64,000 nt of DNA from positions 65,404-129,403 of the forward strand of contig JAJFLX010000012.1 in assembly GCA_021772465.1 (NCBI GenBank), written 5' to 3'. Within the stretch, counting starts at the first letter, position 1, and every line of letters starts with the position of its first letter. This document shows, in pieces, positions 9,412 to 49,817 of the stretch. Both the position numbers and the translations under genes were made by a program. The notes below the pieces were generated by a model. That model searched no databases. It was given only the letters and a program-made list of their open reading frames with translations, and was not told the origin of the DNA. Origin of the DNA: Chlamydiota bacterium. Its GTDB lineage: Bacteria > Chlamydiota > Chlamydiia > Chlamydiales > JAAKFR01.

Positions 9412-9484
9412 CGGACCGAGCAGGATTCGAACCTGCGACCACCCGCTTAGAAGGCGGGTGCTCTATCCGCTGAGCTATCGGTCC
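9412..9484 (-). tRNA. tRNA-Arg (anticodon UCU)
   Basis: Reverse complement reads GGACCGA-TA-GCTC-AGCGGATA-GAGC-A-CCCGC-CTTCTAA-GCGGG-TGGTC-GCAGG-TTCGAAT-CCTGC-TCGGTCC-G. Acceptor, D, anticodon and T stems pair perfectly. No encoded CCA. Confidence 0.93.
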
Positions 9485-43151: not shown

Positions 43152-43844
43152 ATGAAGAAACGACTGAGTAAAACTCTAGCGGCAGCGGGCGTCGCTTCAA
43201 GACGAGCGTGTGAATCTTTGATTTTTGATGGCCTCGTCCAAGTCAACGGCCAGACCGTGCGCATCCCTCAAACTCTCGTTGACCTGGAGCACGACACGGT
43301 GCGTGTCAATGGAGAGCAGGTAGGAAAAGAGGAGGCGAAGGTCTATTTCCTCTTCCATAAGCCCGCCGGCTATCTCTGCACTAGTGACCCCGTTCCACGC
43401 TCTGTTCTCAATTTTTTTTCACACCTTCCTCACCGCCTTTTTACCGTGGGGCGTCTTGACAAAGAGACCTCTGGACTCCTACTTGTCACAAATGACGGCA
43501 CCTTTGCCCACCATGTGATCCACCCCTCATTTGGGGTCAAAAAACATTACATTGCAAAAACAGGGCAAGAGATCACACCTGAACACCTTAAAAAGCTCTC
43601 TTTGGGGATAGAAATAGAGGGGAGCCGCGTAATACCCTTCGCGGTCAAAAAAGTGAGGCGAGGCACTGTTAAAATCGTTGTCAAAGATGGAAAAAAACAC
43701 GAAGTGCGCCTTCTTCTTGAGGCTGCAGGGCTTACCGTACGTGAACTCGTCCGCTTTCAAGTCGGCTCTCTCTCTTTGGACAACCTAGCTGCTGGCTCCT
43801 ACCGCGTTCTTTCGAAAGAAGAAATCTCCTCATTTGAAAAATAA
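43152..43844 (+). CDS. rluB: RsuA/RluB-family pseudouridine synthase
   Basis: 230 aa. S4 domain (RLSKTLAAAGVASRR) and catalytic GRLDKETSGLLLVTNDG. Confidence 0.88.
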   Translation: MKKRLSKTLAAAGVASRRACESLIFDGLVQVNGQTVRIPQTLVDLEHDTVRVNGEQVGKEEAKVYFLFHKPAGYLCTSDPVPRSVLNFFSHLPHRLFTVGRLDKETSGLLLVTNDGTFAHHVIHPSFGVKKHYIAKTGQEITPEHLKKLSLGIEIEGSRVIPFAVKKVRRGTVKIVVKDGKKHEVRLLLEAAGLTVRELVRFQVGSLSLDNLAAGSYRVLSKEEISSFEK

Positions 43845-43901
43845 TTTTACATTCACTACATTCCGGTTCATGCATTGCATCATGAAAAAAGGAGTCATGT
43901 A

Positions 43902-44312
43902 ATGAAAAAATCCGATCTCGCTAAACTCGCCCTATTTGGCATCAGCGCGGGGCTCGTAGCCGGTGGCTGCCAACAAAAAGCGAACAAAAATGAAAGCCAC
44001 GATGCCAAGAAAAATGGCAACAATGCTGAGCAATCGGCGCAAGATATGGAAAGCTTTAAAGCCTCTCTCTCTCCAGAAGCTAAAAAACAATTTGACGAGC
44101 TCGATGCCAAGCACAAAATGATGGCTGTTGAGATGGCAAATCAAGAGTGCAAAGGGAAAAATAAGTGCTCTGGTATCGGGGGATGTGCGACGAAAGACAA
44201 CTCCTGCGCGGGCAAAAACAGCTGCAAAGGGAAGGGTGGACCTCCAGTAGACAGCCCAGAGAAGGCCGTAGAAGTGCAGTACAAAGCGCAAATGAATGGT
44301 GATAAGAAGTAA
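43902..44312 (+). CDS. Secreted Cys-rich peptide precursor (bufferin-like RiPP precursor candidate)
   Basis: AAGGAG lies 7 nt upstream of the ATG at 43902. Signal sequence MKKSDLAKLALFGISAGLVAGGC, Lys/Glu/Asn-rich linker, then ECKGKNKCSGIGGCATKDNSCAGKNSCKGKGG. It sits immediately upstream of the DUF692 gene. Confidence 0.7.
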   Translation: MKKSDLAKLALFGISAGLVAGGCQQKANKNESHDAKKNGNNAEQSAQDMESFKASLSPEAKKQFDELDAKHKMMAVEMANQECKGKNKCSGIGGCATKDNSCAGKNSCKGKGGPPVDSPEKAVEVQYKAQMNGDKK

Positions 44313-44354
44313 TTCTTGCTCTTTCGCGCGAAAAGTGAATAAGGTGTGTGTCAT

Positions 44355-45194
44355 ATGACACACGCCTTTGACATCACCAACCTTGGAATCGGCATTGGAC
44401 TGAGACCTGTTCACTATGATGAGATCTACTCTCTTGAGCCTGACATTGATTGGTTCGAGATCATCAGTGAAAACTACATGGTCGAGGGGGGCAAACCTCT
44501 CGAGCACCTCGATAAAATCCTCGAACGCTACCCTGTTGTGCAACACGGCGTCAACCTCGCGATAGGAAGCCCCACCCCTCTTGATTGGGACTACCTGCGG
44601 CGCCTCAAGAGGCTCGTGGCTCGCACGAAAACCCCATGGCTCTCTGATCATTTGAGCTGGGGACGCCTTCCTGGCGCTCACTTCCACGACCTGCTCCCCC
44701 TTCCCTACACGCAGGAAGTCATTGATTATGTCGCCGAAAGAGCGCGTATTGTCCAAGACTTTTTAGAGATCCCCTTTGCACTTGAAAATCTTTCTTCTTA
44801 TGTCGCCTACACAGACGATTCTATGCCCGAGTGGGAGTTCTACTCTCAAGTAGTTGAGAAGGGGGGAATTTTTATGATGCTCGATGTGAATAATATCTAC
44901 GTCTCGAGCCGCAATCATGGCTTTGATCCCATGACGTACATCAACTCCATACCCTTGAGCCGCGTCATTCAAATTCATTTAGCTGGGCACTCTGACCATG
45001 GGGACTATGTACTCGATACGCATGATCACCCTGTACGCGATGAGGTGTGGGCGCTCTATAGCGAGGTGTGGTCTCGAGCCCCTGTCTCGACCCTTTTAGA
45101 GTGGGATGACAATTTTGTGAGTTTTGAAGAGACCTGGGCCGAGGCGCTTAGGGCTAAGGCCTTCCAAAAGGAGCTTCATGAGTCGACTCTTTGA
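44355..45194 (+). CDS. DUF692 / MbnB-like multinuclear non-heme iron oxidase (MNIO)
   Basis: GIGLRPVHY, DWFEIISENY, HGVNL, SDHLSW, ALENLSSY, MLDVNNIYV, HLAGH, LDTHDH and LLEWD, the conserved TIM-barrel metal-ligand pattern of DUF692. AAGGTG lies 8 nt upstream of the ATG at 44355. Confidence 0.88.
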   Translation: MTHAFDITNLGIGIGLRPVHYDEIYSLEPDIDWFEIISENYMVEGGKPLEHLDKILERYPVVQHGVNLAIGSPTPLDWDYLRRLKRLVARTKTPWLSDHLSWGRLPGAHFHDLLPLPYTQEVIDYVAERARIVQDFLEIPFALENLSSYVAYTDDSMPEWEFYSQVVEKGGIFMMLDVNNIYVSSRNHGFDPMTYINSIPLSRVIQIHLAGHSDHGDYVLDTHDHPVRDEVWALYSEVWSRAPVSTLLEWDDNFVSFEETWAEALRAKAFQKELHESTL

Positions 45195-45927
45195 GACGCA
45201 AGTTTGGTTTGGATCTATCATTCGGCAGCCGCTTCAGACTGACCACTCGCTTCCAGAGTCCGTTTGTAGTGAGGCAGCTCACTTCATAGCGCCAAGTCCC
45301 ACACTCACTCCTCATAAACGGCTGGAAATCTACCACCAGCAGTACTGGTGGCGACTTCTCGACTGTTTGCAAAACAATTTTCCTTTTCTTACCAAGCTCC
45401 TTGGGGCTGATACGTTCAATCAAAAAATTGGAATCCCCTACCTCTCAGCCCACCCTCCCTCTGATTGGGCACTTTGCAAACTGGGGCAATCGCTCCCTTT
45501 GTGGTTAGCAAAGCAAAAAGAGCCCAGACGGCTGGTCGATGCTGCGCGCATCGATGCCGCCTCAGAACACGCTTTTTGGTGTGAGCAGAAACCCACGGCT
45601 GATTTTTCAGCCAAAAAACTCCACCTTCAACCCTTTGTTCATCTTTTCGAGTTGGAAGAGGATCTCTTTGAATATCGTGACCAACTGCTCCTAGGCAAAG
45701 AGATAAAAGTCGACTCTACCCCTTGCTACCGGGCGCTCTATCGAAACCGTGAAAGCCAGGTTCGGTGGAAACCTCTCACCCGAGTTGAGTACTCTCTTTT
45801 GCGGGCTTTTGAGTTAGGATCGAGTATTGAAGAGGCGTGCAGCTCTCTTCGACCGAGCAAAAAACTTGAAGAGTTGATTGTCATCTGGTTTCGTGAGTGG
45901 ACCTACCTGGGATGGTTTACCTCATGA
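45178..45927 (+). CDS. DUF2063-type partner protein of the MNIO enzyme
   Basis: 249 aa from the ATG at 45178, overlapping the DUF692 stop by 17 nt. Size, position and N-terminal pattern (LFETQVWFGSIIRQP...LEIYHQQYWWRL) fit DUF2063. Confidence 0.7.
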   Translation: MSRLFETQVWFGSIIRQPLQTDHSLPESVCSEAAHFIAPSPTLTPHKRLEIYHQQYWWRLLDCLQNNFPFLTKLLGADTFNQKIGIPYLSAHPPSDWALCKLGQSLPLWLAKQKEPRRLVDAARIDAASEHAFWCEQKPTADFSAKKLHLQPFVHLFELEEDLFEYRDQLLLGKEIKVDSTPCYRALYRNRESQVRWKPLTRVEYSLLRAFELGSSIEEACSSLRPSKKLEELIVIWFREWTYLGWFTS

Positions 45928-46178
45928 TACTCACACTTTTTCTCTCTTCTTTATTTGTTGGGGCAGCTTTAGGAGTCTTGCAGCGGATTCGCAAAAAAAG
46001 AAGAGTGCAGCGCGCAAGGGAAGTTCCTTTGCTCGAGGCGAGAGAGCGTATTGACCTACTTGAAAAACAGCTAGGTGAAACTAAAGAGCTTGCTCTTCGC
46101 GCCTTTTATGAAGAAGAGCTTCAGGTAGCCAAAAATCAACTCGCCCGCGCCCACCACCAGAAGAGATCAGCCTCCTAA
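45924..46178 (+). CDS. Small single-pass membrane protein with coiled-coil tail
   Basis: ATGA start/stop overlap with the DUF2063 gene. MILTLFLSSLFVGAALGVL TM segment followed by a basic stretch and a helical tail. Its last ~19 codons are duplicated at 49358-49420. Confidence 0.55.
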   Translation: MILTLFLSSLFVGAALGVLQRIRKKRRVQRAREVPLLEARERIDLLEKQLGETKELALRAFYEEELQVAKNQLARAHHQKRSAS

Positions 46179-46220
46179 TTAGGGTCAGAGAAATGAAGAA
46201 AAATGTGCTTGTAGGGATGG
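46121..46220 (+). repeat. Left copy of ~100-bp imperfect direct repeat bracketing the ankyrin/IS islet
   Basis: ttcaggtagccaaaaatcaactcgcccgcgcccaccaccagaagagatcagcctcctaa...cttgtagggatgg aligns with 49358-49465, mostly identical with a few small indels. Confidence 0.8.
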
Positions 46221-46303: not shown

Positions 46304-47047
46304 TCAGTGAAGCATTGATATACCCTTACCAGTCATTAGTGTAGCGAATAGCTCAGCTACATCTCTCTCTTTATTTCTCTCGTCAGCCCTCAAAAGCAAG
46401 CCATGAATTTGACGCAGTGTTTTACTCTTAGCTCCCTCAACCTTTTGAATGACCGTTCTACCGTATCTGTCAGTAATTTGAGGATTCGCCCCCCACTCCA
46501 AAAGAGCCCTGACAACCGCGGCATATCCAAGTGTAGTTGCCCTCTGAAGAGCAGTATCGCCATTTTGACGCAAAGCATTGGGGTTGGCCCCTGCAGTTAA
46601 AAGAATCCTGGCAACTGAGGCATGTCCCTTTAGAGCTGCCACTATAAGAGCAGTATCGCCACCCTCATCCACAGCATTGGGGTCGGCCCCCCACTCCAAA
46701 AGAGCCCTGACAACCGCGGCATATCCAAGTGTAGTTGCCCTCTGAAGAGCAGTATCGCCACCCTCATCCACAGCATTGGGGTCGGCCCCTCCCTCTAAGA
46801 GAGCCCTGACATCCTCAGCATGACCACGGGTAACCGCCCAGAACAAAACTCCAGAAAGATCTCTATTCACCGGCTCTCTACCGGCCCCTCCCTCTTGCTG
46901 CACCTCAGGAGCTCCAGCGAGTACTCTAAGAGCAACCTCCGCTGTAGCAGCAGCGCCTTCATTTTCAGCATCGGGATTAGCCCCCTCTGCGACTCTATCA
47001 AATGTTTTCGATGGAATAGAACCTGATGAACCGGGAGCAGGAGTCAT
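46304..47047 (-). CDS. Ankyrin-repeat protein (paralog 1)
   Basis: 247 aa with about 5 ANK repeats (GDTALQRATTLGYAAVVRALLEWGADPNAVDE etc.). Its N- and C-termini are shared with the neighbouring paralog. Confidence 0.85.
   Translation of the reverse strand: MTPAPGSSGSIPSKTFDRVAEGANPDAENEGAAATAEVALRVLAGAPEVQQEGGAGREPVNRDLSGVLFWAVTRGHAEDVRALLEGGADPNAVDEGGDTALQRATTLGYAAVVRALLEWGADPNAVDEGGDTALIVAALKGHASVARILLTAGANPNALRQNGDTALQRATTLGYAAVVRALLEWGANPQITDRYGRTVIQKVEGAKSKTLRQIHGLLLRADERNKERDVAELFATLMTGKGISMLH
46488..46790 (-). repeat. Intragenic near-perfect repeats of ankyrin modules
   Basis: A 75-bp perfect repeat at 46488-46562 and 46686-46760 (198-bp offset). A further ~44-bp repeat at about 46647-46690 and 46746-46789 (99-bp offset). 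Confidence 0.85.
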
Positions 47048-47241: not shown

Positions 47242-47853
47242 CTAGTGAAGCATTGATTTGCCCATGCCAGGCACTAATGCAGCAAATAGCTCAGCTACAT
47301 CTTTCTCTTTTTTTGCCTCCTCAAGAGTCCTTACAACTGAGGCATGTTCCGTCCGAACTGCCGCCATAAGAGCAGTTCTGCCAAACTCATCCACAGCATT
47401 GAGGTCAGCCCGACCCTCTAAGAGAGTCCTGACCACTGAGTTATATCCAAATTCAGTTGCAAGCATAAGAGCAGTATCGCCATCCTTATCCACAGCGTTG
47501 GGATCTGCTCCACGCTCCAAAAGAGCCTTGACAACTGAAGCATGTCCCTTTAGAGCTGCCACTATAAGAGCAGGATCACCATCCTCATCCACAGCATTAG
47601 GGTCGACCCCCTCATCTAAGAATTCCCTGACACTCCGAGCTGAGCCTCGGTCAATCGCCCAGAAAAAAGGTCCAGAAAGATCTCTATCTATCGACTCTCG
47701 ATTGACTCCTCTCGCTTGCGGCATAGCGAGTACTCTAAGAGCAACCTCAGCTGTAGCAGCAGCGCCTTCATCTACAGTATTGGGATCCACTCTTGAAGCA
47801 GAATCGCATACTTTCGATGGACTATAACCTGATAAACCAGGAGCGTGAGTCAC
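47242..47853 (-). CDS. Ankyrin-repeat protein (paralog 2)
   Basis: 203 aa. N-terminus MTHAPGLSGYSPSK...EGAAATAEVALRVLA and C-terminus KEKDVAELFAALVPGMGKSMLH parallel paralog 1. The 3' flanks are also homologous (46283 vs 47220 onward). Confidence 0.85.
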   Translation of the reverse strand: MTHAPGLSGYSPSKVCDSASRVDPNTVDEGAAATAEVALRVLAMPQARGVNRESIDRDLSGPFFWAIDRGSARSVREFLDEGVDPNAVDEDGDPALIVAALKGHASVVKALLERGADPNAVDKDGDTALMLATEFGYNSVVRTLLEGRADLNAVDEFGRTALMAAVRTEHASVVRTLEEAKKEKDVAELFAALVPGMGKSMLH

Positions 47854-48140: not shown

Positions 48141-48366
48141 TCCTAGCTTTACAAAAATCCTAAATCTTCGGGACTAGGGAGTTCAAGAACCTGTTTCAAC
48201 CACTCATAACATGCTATGCCAAAGTCTTCTATGTCTATCTAGCATTCAGAACCACAGACAACCACTAGAATCGAAATGATGAGGATGTTACCACGTTGGT
48301 GCAGTTCTTTACGCTCTAGCCTTGGGTCGGGCATCTCTGCAAATAAGCCGATAAACTGAATTTGAC
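48141..48366 (-). mobile_element. ISAs1-family transposase N-terminal relic
   Basis: Reverse strand translates as LFAEMPDPRLERKELHQRGNILIISILVVVCGSEC*IDIEDFGIACYEWLKQVLELPSPEDLGF. This matches the ISAs1/H-repeat N-domain pattern (F..L.DPR...K.H.L.DIL.I...AV.CGA..W..IE.FG....WL...L.L). It carries an in-frame stop and lacks the DDE domain. Confidence 0.65.
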
Positions 48367-48464
48367 ATCCACAATCACCTCGATTTAAGGCGACGAGCAC
48401 CTACTGTCGGGGTCCTATCAATCAATTGGAAATTGTAATGCGTTTTCCCTGATGTAAAAGGTCT

Positions 48465-49295
48465 CTAATTGATTGTCTTGGTCAATTCAGCAAGAGCTGA
48501 CCATTTCGTTTCAAACTCTTGCTCGCTAATTTGTGGCGAGGGGTAAAGATTCGCACCAAGGTAATGAATTCCATCATACTGAATAAGTGGATTATATTTA
48601 TTCAGGGACTCTTCTACATTTTTTAAATTATCTTCACGATCGTCTATGAATATCACACGCTTGGGGTGCAAGCCGGCGATTTGCAAGAAGCGAATCAATA
48701 CATCCCCTTTTGGACAGACTGGTCCATTGGCAAACAAAATGCCCTGCTTATATGAAGAATAATTACCTCGATAAGAGGGGAGGTCACAAAAGGTTTGATT
48801 TTCTTGCATTGGAGCCGACGAGGTAAAGTCAATTCCAAGCTTACATAGGCGATTAATTTTCCACGCTTCCAGACTTGCAATATTTTTTAATGGACCCGTG
48901 AGGTTAGAAGTTAAAGCAATGGTGGGTACGCTGTTTTCAATTAATCTGCTGAGAAGGGTAGGAGTATAGGTGTCGACTAGAATCGAATCTGAGTTGAGCA
49001 GCATCAAAGTTAAGAAAAGATTTTTTTTCTCCTGAGGAATGGATTGGGAAATCCGTTTTGCCACATTTCGAAAATGCACCATATTGGCCATTTGAAATGC
49101 TGGATCGCTTGGTTGTATCAAGACCATATCAATGTCAAAAATTATTAAGGTGTCACAATCTGCGTTCGCAAAATAACGTGTAACTTCTTCCATCGTATTT
49201 ACCTTATTGATTGTAGCGTAGCCGCTTGCAAAAGAACACAATATGACAATCGAAAAATAAAGCAACACTTTTGAAGTAAATTTTCTGTCACGCAT
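48465..49295 (-). CDS. Secreted HAD-superfamily-like protein (DUF2608-like)
   Basis: Probable start MRDRKFTSKVLLYFSIVILCSFASG (signal/TM). HAD motif I-like LIIFDIDMVL and motif IV-like VIFIDDREDN. It is visibly AT-richer than backbone genes. My recollection of this family as Legionella/Coxiella-type is tentative. Confidence 0.6.
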   Translation of the reverse strand: MRDRKFTSKVLLYFSIVILCSFASGYATINKVNTMEEVTRYFANADCDTLIIFDIDMVLIQPSDPAFQMANMVHFRNVAKRISQSIPQEKKNLFLTLMLLNSDSILVDTYTPTLLSRLIENSVPTIALTSNLTGPLKNIASLEAWKINRLCKLGIDFTSSAPMQENQTFCDLPSYRGNYSSYKQGILFANGPVCPKGDVLIRFLQIAGLHPKRVIFIDDREDNLKNVEESLNKYNPLIQYDGIHYLGANLYPSPQISEQEFETKWSALAELTKTIN

Positions 49296-49357
49296 TTCAA
49301 TCCTTTTTAAAGGCTGTGGGAGAGCCTGCGCCGAGCATAGCTGGAGCTGCAATGTTT

Positions 49358-49465
49358 TTCAAATAGCCAAAAATCAGCTCGCCCGCGCCCACTACCAGAA
49401 AAAATCAGCCCCTTAAGTCAGGGTCTTAAGAGAGAAACGAAGAAAATTCTGTCTTGTAGGAATGG
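49358..49465 (+). repeat. Right copy of the direct repeat bracketing the islet
   Basis: tttcaaatagccaaaaatcagctcgcccgcgcccactaccagaaaaaatcagccccttaa...cttgtaggaatgg. It keeps the reading frame QIAKNQLARAHYQKKSAP*, against QVAKNQLARAHHQKRSAS* in the intact gene. Confidence 0.8.
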
Positions 49466-49520: not shown

Positions 49521-49817
49521 ATGAACTGGGGTAATGTTCTCCCAATCTTGTCGATTCTCGTCCTTATCCTCGTAGGGCTATGGGCGATTATGCGCAATAT
49601 TAAAGAAGAAATTCGCTCTGTAAAAATAGATCTGGATCATAAAATAGACAGATTAGATCACAAAATTGATGTGACTAAAGCAGAACTAAAAGAAGACATC
49701 AAAGTCGTGCGGGCAGATATACGCTCTCTTCAAGAAATGCTTTGGGTAAGCATTGTTGGCCAGAAACCAGAATTTTACAAGCAACCCAAAGATCAACAAC
49801 AAAACGAAAAAATTTAG
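49521..49817 (+). CDS. Small single-pass membrane protein with coiled-coil region
   Basis: 98 aa. TM segment VLPILSILVLILVGLWAI followed by repetitive KIDLDHKIDRLDHKIDV heptad-like sequence. Confidence 0.5.
   Translation: MNWGNVLPILSILVLILVGLWAIMRNIKEEIRSVKIDLDHKIDRLDHKIDVTKAELKEDIKVVRADIRSLQEMLWVSIVGQKPEFYKQPKDQQQNEKI

Follow-up and report, generated by a model that had tools for sequence, protein, structure and literature searches.

A Conserved Bufferin-Type Gene Cluster with a Five-Cysteine, Lipoprotein-Like Precursor in Environmental Chlamydiales

Organization of the locus and the maturase pair

Bufferins, a very large class that was defined recently, are copper-binding peptides made on ribosomes and modified after translation (RiPPs) that were characterised in free-living Proteobacteria. 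The DNA analyzed here is a 64,000-nt stretch of the genome of a Chlamydiota bacterium (the window), which includes, at positions 43902-46178 and all on the forward (+) strand, the genes bufA, bufB and bufC followed by a small open reading frame (ORF) for a membrane protein, referred to as gene 4. An earlier note, prepared from the nucleotide sequence, had proposed that four co-directional ORFs form a bufferin-type MNIO RiPP cluster (precursor, DUF692 enzyme and DUF2063 partner) in a chlamydial genome. All four ORFs are present as described, and the proposal is supported by the models that BufB and BufC passed. The genes, and the regions recognised within the precursor, are the following.

43902-44312 (+): bufA, 136-amino acid precursor with a lipoprotein signal and a Buf2-like core within a helical scaffold (BufA2 model, homologues)
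43902-43970 (+): predicted signal peptide ending in the lipobox L-V-A-G-G-C23, with KK in the n-region, a hydrophobic core and QQ after the cysteine
44019-44147 (+): scaffold helices 1 and 2, residues ~40-82, DMESFKASLSPEAKKQFDELDAKHKMMAVEMANQE, with an LTXXQ-like motif and a His/Met-rich helix (AlphaFold2, conservation)
44148-44240 (+): Buf2-type cysteine core C83-x5-C89-x5-C95-x6-C102-x5-C108-KGKGG-P (BufA2 model match)
44241-44312 (+): scaffold helix 3 (PVDSPEKAVEVQYKAQMNGDKK) and stop codon (AlphaFold2 helix 119-133)
44355-45194 (+): bufB, MNIO (DUF692) maturase of 279 amino acids (Pfam, NCBIfam, ligand-motif alignment)
45178-45927 (+): bufC, DUF2063/HvfC_N partner of 249 amino acids, with a 17-nt overlap with bufB (Pfam)
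45924-46178 (+): gene 4, 84 amino acids, single-pass membrane protein with a coiled coil, overlapping the bufC stop codon, no family match

BufB matched the full Pfam profile MbnB_TglH_ChrH (PF05114) with 343 bits (1.3e-102), and it passed the NCBIfam equivalog model NF050167 (MNIO_BufB, 'MNIO family bufferin maturase') with 321.3 bits, the cut-off being 310, over profile positions 1-261 of 262. Its scores were far below the cut-offs of the HvfB, ApyH, ChrH and MbnB models. BufB was also aligned with the solved DUF692 proteins 3BWW, TglH and MbnB. Residues H64, H99, E144, D177/N180, H208, D221, H223 and E249, which from the MbnB structures we take to be iron ligands, fall on the HxxN, SDH, EN, DxxN, HxAG, DTH and ExD motifs of these proteins and show a conservation of at least 99% among 67 BufB sequences. 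The models passed and the conservation of these residues agree with the previous description of the gene as coding for a DUF692/MbnB-type enzyme with the full motif set. The DUF2063 type of BufC and the 17-nt overlap were also as described, with a score of 52.9 bits for DUF2063/HvfC_N (PF09836; cut-off 27.2). The C-terminus of BufC reached 18.1 bits with NGO1945_C/HvfC_C (PF22106), an RRE-like domain, which is below the cut-off of 27, and a search of the PDB by sequence found no relative of BufC.

The arrangement is also found in other chlamydial genomes. A scan of the GTDB species representatives identified 17 chlamydial metagenome-assembled genomes (MAGs) with a full-length precursor, and the order bufA-bufB-bufC was found in 14 other chlamydial loci; L021 differs in that bufB-bufC are 3 kb away on the opposite strand. 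Such an arrangement is far beyond what would be expected by chance. At least 13 of the fetched loci share the same slot, which consists of nifU-nifS-gpmA (-), rluB, a variable hypothetical gene, bufA-bufB-bufC and, later, gpsA and UDPGP (-). In about ten of these syntenic loci, genes coding for LemA and Peptidase_M48 follow immediately after bufC, either overlapping or abutting it. LemA and Peptidase_M48 are absent from the whole window, as is the variable gene from the region upstream of bufA, i.e., the window has lost both. The variable hypothetical gene (L002 6416-7909, L004 6491-7942 and L006 5431-7917) codes for 483-828 amino acids, with no significant Pfam family. The LemA-M48 genes follow bufC in L002 (10201-11783), L004, L006, L008-L014 and L019. 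In these loci the operon seems to continue into a module for an envelope protease, a linkage on which the MNIO landscape paper is silent.

The precursor BufA: signal, cysteine core and scaffold

The sequence AGGAG, located 8 nt before the bufA ATG, is the strong Shine-Dalgarno sequence that had been noticed before, and a protein identical to BufA (P0001) is recorded as a called gene. Homologues of BufA (alignment A1) numbered 35, with 50-68% identity, and the three with a named source are assigned to Chlamydiales bacterium. Among the loci of the genome collection, none showed an identity to BufA above 64%. The conserved elements of A1 appear in the order AGLxxGGC-QQ signal, DMQAFYxSLSPEAQKKFxxLDAQHKMMAVEMANQ, core plus KGxGG-[A/P], and NKAVEVQYKNQ helix. 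The N-terminus, MKKSDLAKLALFGISAGLVAGGC, is a signal sequence, as the earlier note had pointed out, and the C-proximal block ECKGKNKCSGIGGCATKDNSCAGKNSCKGKGG is present exactly as quoted there. The note missed that the signal ends in a lipobox, that the sixth cysteine is lost and that the protein has a helical scaffold. Inspection of the sequence and its conservation (AGL.xGGCQQ is conserved across A1) point to a signal of the lipoprotein type (signal peptidase II), which would provide the Sec-type signal required of a Buf2 precursor. Lipoprotein-type signals are predicted for 16% of Buf2 precursors (PMC12452194); lipidated MNIO products have already been described, and some bufferins are predicted to be lipidated (PMC13056109).

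The BufA2 model (NF050166) was the only one that matched BufA in the NCBIfam search, with residues 74-112 aligned to profile positions 22-62 of 79 (E = 6e-9). The core aligns column by column with canonical Buf2 modules, and its spacing is that of Buf2 rather than Buf1. None of the four proteins of the cluster matched DUF2282 or DoxX in Pfam, and therefore the cluster does not correspond to the Buf1 type. C89, C95, C102 and C108 are invariant in A1; C83 (CysI) is conserved only at about 90%. The sixth cysteine (CysVI), located after the KGKGG segment, is kept only in L024 and L089; loci L008-L023 and each of the 35 full-length homologues have P, A, S, N, V or E in its place. Since the canonical Buf2 modules of Acidobacteriota, Planctomycetota and Verrucomicrobiota end in KGKGG-C, the clade that includes BufA has lost this cysteine. 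The thiooxazole modification of -4 Da found in Caulobacter Buf2 is on the four central cysteines, and CysI and CysVI, which remain unmodified, are probably joined by a disulfide (PMC11626156). The invariant cysteines of BufA are exactly these four. Many relatives of BufA, such as P0014, P0019, P0022, P0023 and P0030, have a Q/N/G/S-rich low-complexity tail with an aromatic end (…PPRY, …QPNY, …PPRF), which the BufA of the window does not possess.

The AlphaFold2 model of BufA predicts helices at residues 41-55 and 58-80 (predicted local distance difference test, pLDDT, 63-86) and 119-133, with the core located between the second and the third. The invariant residues of helices 1 and 2 are L, F, L, D, H, M and M. 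A profile of these two N-terminal helices found 54 proteins among 1.84 billion cluster representatives, with a common lipobox-helix-helix-[insert]-helix architecture in which the insert differs. There can be the 5-Cys core, a 2-Cys insert (CxxxxC or Cx5C), no Cys insert (e.g., P0170, P0173, P0185, P0195 and P0210), or tandem repeats. The NKAVE.QY.NQ segment is conserved in the 5-Cys, 2-Cys and core-less members. In L016 (2023-2742), L020 (10001-10765) and P0162, the entire unit of scaffold and 5-Cys core is duplicated, giving proteins of 239-256 amino acids, and in L094 (490-1393) rluB is followed by two tandem paralogues, one of the 5-Cys and one of the 2-Cys type.

The distribution of the maturase genes follows that of the core. 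All 15 related loci that have a 5- or 6-Cys core and sufficient flanking sequence encode BufB and BufC, which adjoin the gene for the Cys-core protein in 14 of them, L021 being the exception already mentioned. The core-less P0195 (L093 6001-6309) is located beside gpsA, UDPGP and a type III secretion system ATPase gene, with neither BufB nor BufC within 6 kb. L093 is the locus that provides the core-less context, the contigs of L091, L092 and L094 being too short to show it, and a single-protein metagenome scan with P0195 found no further core-less scaffold loci. The cysteine core thus behaves, as far as these loci go, as an insert in an independent lipoprotein that travels with the maturase genes. 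The fact that the presence of the core tracks the maturase genes is the strongest in-silico evidence, with one core-less locus, that the core is the substrate of BufBC.

The scaffold shares with the periplasmic LTXXQ/Metal_resist proteins (Spy, CpxP and ZraP type; PF07813 and PF13801) a L-[ST]-P-[ED]-x-[QK] motif at a helix start and a helical hairpin. Its own Pfam hits to Metal_resist, LTXXQ and DUF305 are sub-threshold: LTXXQ and Metal_resist hits were obtained for 10 and 6 of 38 members, respectively, with best E values of 0.012 and 0.0042. A distant match of the scaffold profile, P0204, passes both the LTXXQ and the Metal_resist models, and no PDB relative of the profile was found by sequence. 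We regard the kinship with LTXXQ/Metal_resist as a lead and not as membership.

Expression signals and proposed function

Two elements that may control expression of the cluster were identified.

43834-43862 (+): promoter-like site of the sigma-70 type (TTGAAA-17-TACATT, then CCGG), from a consensus scan
44341-44368 (+): 12-bp hairpin AAGGUGUGUGUC-AUAU-GACACACGCCUU (-25.7 kcal/mol, z = -4.6)

The promoter-like site overlaps the stop codon of rluB, which is separated from bufA by 57 nt. Most related loci have an equivalent layout, TTGnnn-~17-TAGTATCC(C/G)G, upstream of bufA, and the consensus match together with this conservation make 43834-43862 a candidate promoter. The motif is the sole element common to the relatives in this region, where no conserved operator was found. 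The palindrome ATGCATTGCAT of the window was considered as an operator and rejected because it is not conserved in the relatives.

The hairpin encloses the AAGG and AUG of bufB. The four genes had been described as translationally coupled, which holds for the overlapping bufB, bufC and gene 4, but bufA and bufB are 42 nt apart and have the hairpin between them. The bufA-bufB spacers of L008-L014 and L020 include a hairpin with the shared arm AAGGUGUnUAU…AUAnACACCUU followed by a U-tract; those of L023 and L024 also have a hairpin and a U-tract, but the stems are unrelated, and the spacer is absent in L015, L017, L018 and L022. The hairpin plus U-tract of the relatives looks like an intrinsic terminator. 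The window has kept the 5' arm found in the relatives, the U-tract is gone, and the bufB start is covered instead. Either arrangement would reduce the level of the enzymes relative to that of the precursor. RiPP operons commonly express their enzymes less than the precursor.

Family assignments, conservation, synteny, co-divergence and the association between core and maturases are results of the sequence comparisons, and taken together they make it probable that the cluster codes for a functional Buf2-type system that produces an envelope-anchored copper binder. What we propose about chemistry, specificity for copper, lipidation and the part played by hairpin and scaffold is extrapolated by homology from Caulobacter Buf1 and Buf2. 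In the proposed pathway, bufA would be transcribed from its own promoter, and the hairpin over the bufB start would keep enzyme expression low in comparison with that of the precursor. BufB, an iron enzyme, would act in the cytoplasm with its DUF2063 partner BufC and oxidise C89, C95, C102 and C108 to 5-thiooxazoles. The modified BufA would then leave the cytoplasm through Sec, receive its lipid at C23 and undergo cleavage in the lipoprotein pathway. Once anchored in the envelope, its thiooxazoles would bind copper and protect the cell from this metal in the amoebal or host vacuole. A chlamydia-specific, LTXXQ-like scaffold of three helices would display the inserted cysteine core, and it may substitute structurally for the CysI-CysVI disulfide that was lost.

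Several observations weigh against this proposal. The BufA2 score of BufA was 36 bits and did not reach the curated cut-off of 60, and the match covers only 39 of the 136 residues. The profile hidden Markov model (HMM) check suggested in the earlier note was, in consequence, passed by BufB and BufC, while BufA was recognised specifically and below threshold; the low score can be ascribed to the insertion of the core in a lineage-specific scaffold. The core has five cysteines, with a proline in the place of the sixth that is part of the pattern defining the family. The AlphaFold2 model, built with 38 sequences, has a mean pLDDT of 53, and its core, with values of 40-50, is of low confidence. 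The link between core and maturases has a single locus, L093, on its core-less side. Neither a copper-responsive regulator nor a conserved operator was found upstream of bufA, and the genes surveyed for copper handling, those on either side of the cluster in the window, included none with such a function.

A more specific version of the proposal can be advanced only tentatively. BufA would be a chimera in which a Buf2 core was inserted as a loop in an independent, chlamydia-wide, three-helix LTXXQ-like lipoprotein, the maturases being gained or lost with the core. If so, environmental chlamydiae would counter the copper of the host or amoeba with a bufferin that is anchored in the membrane and displayed on a scaffold. 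This bufferin would be a conserved envelope defence, co-transcribed in most relatives with a LemA-M48 protease module, and the scaffold, instead of a leader peptide or a disulfide, would give stability to the fold and perhaps permit recognition by BufC.

The same enzymology could serve another job. The product could acquire or deliver metal, as a chalkophore or a metallochaperone of copper or of a different soft metal, or it could be a stress or redox factor of the envelope whose role is linked to the LTXXQ-like scaffold and to LemA-M48, instead of being a copper-detoxifying buffer. The occurrence of the scaffold without the core or maturase genes, which indicates an independent function, and the reach of its profile to P0204, a bona fide LTXXQ/Metal_resist protein, speak for this explanation, as do the translational coupling of bufC, in the relatives, to the genes of the envelope-associated proteins LemA and Peptidase_M48, and the predicted membrane anchoring, which is unlike the soluble Caulobacter bufferins. 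Nonetheless, the characterised members of this MNIO branch (Buf1, Buf2, oxazolin and fontiphorin) have all been linked to copper detoxification (PMC11626156; PMC13097082), the link to LTXXQ is sub-threshold for the chlamydial proteins themselves, and LemA-M48 seems dispensable because the window genome lost it and kept bufABC. We consider a different job rather unlikely.

Chlamydiae use Cys-rich lipoproteins as structural components. BufA could then be an unmodified Cys-rich envelope lipoprotein that forms disulfide cross-links, as OmcA does, with the MNIO pair acting elsewhere or being inactive, and the scaffold family is indeed a conserved chlamydial lipoprotein that can occur without maturase genes. 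This is highly improbable: BufA2 is the only model matched by the Cys spacing and the G/K/N residues around it, the core is present only where bufBC is present, bufB is intact and under strong constraint with all ligand-equivalent residues, and the cysteine needed for the disulfide is the one that was lost.

Among the known systems, the closest in organization is buf2ABC of Caulobacter vibrioides (CCNA_02999-03001; PMC11626156, PMC12452194), which has the same order of precursor, MNIO and DUF2063 genes and no DoxX. The chlamydial precursors also share with Buf2 (BUF_6/12Cys) the Sec-type signal and the C-x5-C-x5-C-x6-C-x5-C arrangement with K/G/N-rich spacers. Moreover, the four thiooxazole-site cysteines are invariant, and BufB passes the bufferin-maturase model. 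They differ from Buf2 in that the partner of CysI in the disulfide is replaced throughout the chlamydial 5-Cys clade and that the core is inserted between the helices of a lineage-specific scaffold of ~80 residues. Other differences from the Caulobacter Buf2 are the lipoprotein signal, the LemA and M48 peptidase genes appended in the relatives, the lack of a SigF/NrsF-type regulator near the chlamydial cluster, and the obligate intracellular life of the host. The earlier note had considered that the usual DoxX-type fourth gene was replaced by another protein. This does not apply, as DoxX is a gene of Buf1 clusters that the Buf2 cluster of Caulobacter lacks (PMC11626156); the gene pair carried by the relatives is LemA and Peptidase_M48.

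The proposed modification in the cytoplasm followed by export and lipidation at the lipobox cysteine by Lgt/LspA/Lnt resembles that of lipidated MNIO RiPPs (DybA/chryseobasin-like, predicted lipo-bufferins and lipo-oxazolins; PMC13056109). DybH/ChrH are different in that they produce a macrocycle and a hydantoin on an unrelated precursor, and BufB scored 67 bits with the ChrH model (cut-off 600). Oxazolin/HvfABC and fontiphorin, grouped with bufferins as 'captophorins' (PMC13097082, PMC11252979), would be similar in combining an MNIO and a DUF2063/RRE partner with a secreted, Cys-rich, copper-binding precursor; the chemistry of the captophorins has been revised to 5-thiooxazole (PMC13097082, PMC11252979). 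Their precursors have an EGKCG motif in place of the Buf2 spacing, and BufB and BufC reached 240 bits with HvfB (cut-off 360) and 26 bits with HvfC (cut-off 142), respectively.

Origin, neighbourhood and significance of the cluster

The earlier note had interpreted the cluster as a recent horizontal island inserted at a break of the chlamydial backbone. The comparison of the loci does not support this interpretation. Besides occupying the same rluB-gpsA slot in at least 13 fetched chlamydial MAG loci, the buf genes have a GC content of 0.46-0.51, equal to that of their flanks, and they diverge together with their neighbours: the divergence of BufB and BufC correlates with that of the housekeeping neighbours with r = 0.77 and r = 0.86, which is as tight as the correlation of the neighbours with one another (0.77-0.83). 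The BufB of the window is 70-85% identical to those of the syntenic loci, and BufB, with a mean pairwise identity of 80% in 11 loci compared to 54-69% for GpmA, RluB, NifU and NifS, is the most conserved protein of the neighbourhood. In a neighbour-joining tree, the chlamydial BufB proteins form one clade, the sister of which consists of single-module Buf2 maturases of Verrucomicrobiota, Phycisphaerae and Terriglobia with 55-58% identity. On the basis of the shared slot, the co-divergence, the single BufB clade and the matching GC content, the buf cluster is, as judged from sequence comparison, an old and vertically inherited component of this chlamydial clade and not a recent island. The island explanation could draw on the islet with an insertion sequence (IS) remnant, low GC content and flanking direct repeats located directly downstream, and on the nearest non-chlamydial BufB proteins being from Verrucomicrobiota, Planctomycetota and Terriglobia, for which an ancient transfer into or within the Planctomycetes-Verrucomicrobia-Chlamydiae (PVC) group is possible, but with the evidence above we find it very hard to sustain.

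The cluster is not rare either, as had been suggested. The protein clusters with 73-85% identity to the BufB of the window number more than 120, and the few BufB-like clusters with a named source are all chlamydial, including Candidatus Protochlamydia naegleriophila. The remark that no such system was known in Chlamydiae is supported, since searches of the literature for DUF692 or bufferins together with Chlamydiae found no description. A different chlamydial MNIO locus was observed in L088 (Candidatus Protochlamydia naegleriophila LN879502.1, 2606660-2623532) and in L089. In these, the MNIO-DUF2063 genes come after those of three or four small secreted proteins (three of CxxxxC type in L088), which have (G)CxxxxC motifs and long tails rich in N/Y/S/T, and rhodanese and Cu-oxidase_4 genes follow. 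L089 also has a 6-Cys Buf2-like precursor with a helical N-domain.

The part of the region that is foreign, and that interrupts the backbone, is the islet of 3.2 kb found downstream and not the buf genes. It includes two paralogous ankyrin genes, an IS remnant and a DUF2608 gene, and is bracketed by direct repeats.

46120-46220 (+): left copy of the direct repeat, ~100 nt, which includes the last 59 nt of gene 4 (repeat family D6)
49358-49465 (+): right copy of the direct repeat, ~86% identical, at the end of the islet (repeat search)

These repeats resemble the trace that an integration or a duplication leaves behind. Because the left copy begins inside gene 4, the islet must have arrived after the buf operon. 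The IS-scarred islet adjoining the cluster had been correctly recognised, as attested by the repeats, the low GC content (0.38-0.42 at 47.6-49.7 kb, the only segment where it falls in this way and part of the islet) and the transposase remnant located within that segment. This remnant is an ORF of 53 amino acids (48239-48400, -) related to the DDE_Tnp_1_assoc N-terminal domain of ISAs1-type transposases, with 26.3 bits, below the cut-off of 32.3. The ankyrin-repeat genes at 46304-47047 and 47242-47853 (-) are tandem paralogues with an internal periodicity of 99 nt, and their flanks are also duplicated (repeat families D1, D2, D4, D5, D7 and D8). A tblastn search found residues 42-83 of gene 4 also at 49291-49410. 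A second small ORF of 98 amino acids (MNWGNVLPILSILVLILVGLW…), located at 49521-49817 (+) between the right repeat and the end of gpsA, has one transmembrane helix followed by a coiled coil, like gene 4. The sole Rfam/ARAGORN match in the window is a tRNA-Arg(TCT) at 9412-9484 (-).

Gene 4 starts in an ATGA overlap with the stop codon of bufC, as previously described; the database gene call (P0041) starts 12 nt earlier, at 45912, and has 88 amino acids. No family match was found in Pfam or NCBIfam (Pfam at E <= 1), and no homologue other than gene 4 itself was present among 5.8 billion proteins. The possibility that it is a truncated LemA (PF04011) was rejected in view of the lack of a Pfam match; BLASTP against the LemA of L002 aligned only 26 residues with E = 0.002 in a single comparison, and nothing was obtained with that of L004. 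Small ORFs with the same position and build (transmembrane helix, basic stretch and ERIEKLEK coiled coil) are present in L015, L017 and L022. They are clearly related to one another and weakly to gene 4 (E about 1e-4), and an HMM built with them found gene 4 at E 7e-5, with LemA proteins at E 0.03-3, above the inclusion threshold. As these three are only weak positional analogues, gene 4 was rejected as a conserved family, and its membership of the buf system is doubtful.

The bufferin (captophorin) system itself is known, and an existing NCBI model would name BufB correctly, though not the precursor. To our knowledge, the elements that are new to the searchable literature are the conserved, syntenic buf cluster in environmental Chlamydiales, the 5-Cys core without a disulfide partner, the helical lipoprotein scaffold with core-less and 2-Cys relatives, and the LemA-M48 linkage in the relatives. 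In a whole clade of obligate intracellular bacteria, a bufferin-type cluster is thereby found among the core features passed on by vertical inheritance. The higher conservation of the maturase compared with its housekeeping neighbours suggests that environmental chlamydiae are under lasting selection by copper, or a different soft metal, in the vacuole of the host. The chlamydial variant separates the four cysteines at the modified sites from the CysI-CysVI disulfide and places the core in a folded helical scaffold, for which the proteins with 2-Cys inserts and those without a core are natural controls. These findings overturn nothing in the present understanding of bufferins; they provide a natural experiment on substrate recognition by BufBC and a concrete set of genes to test.

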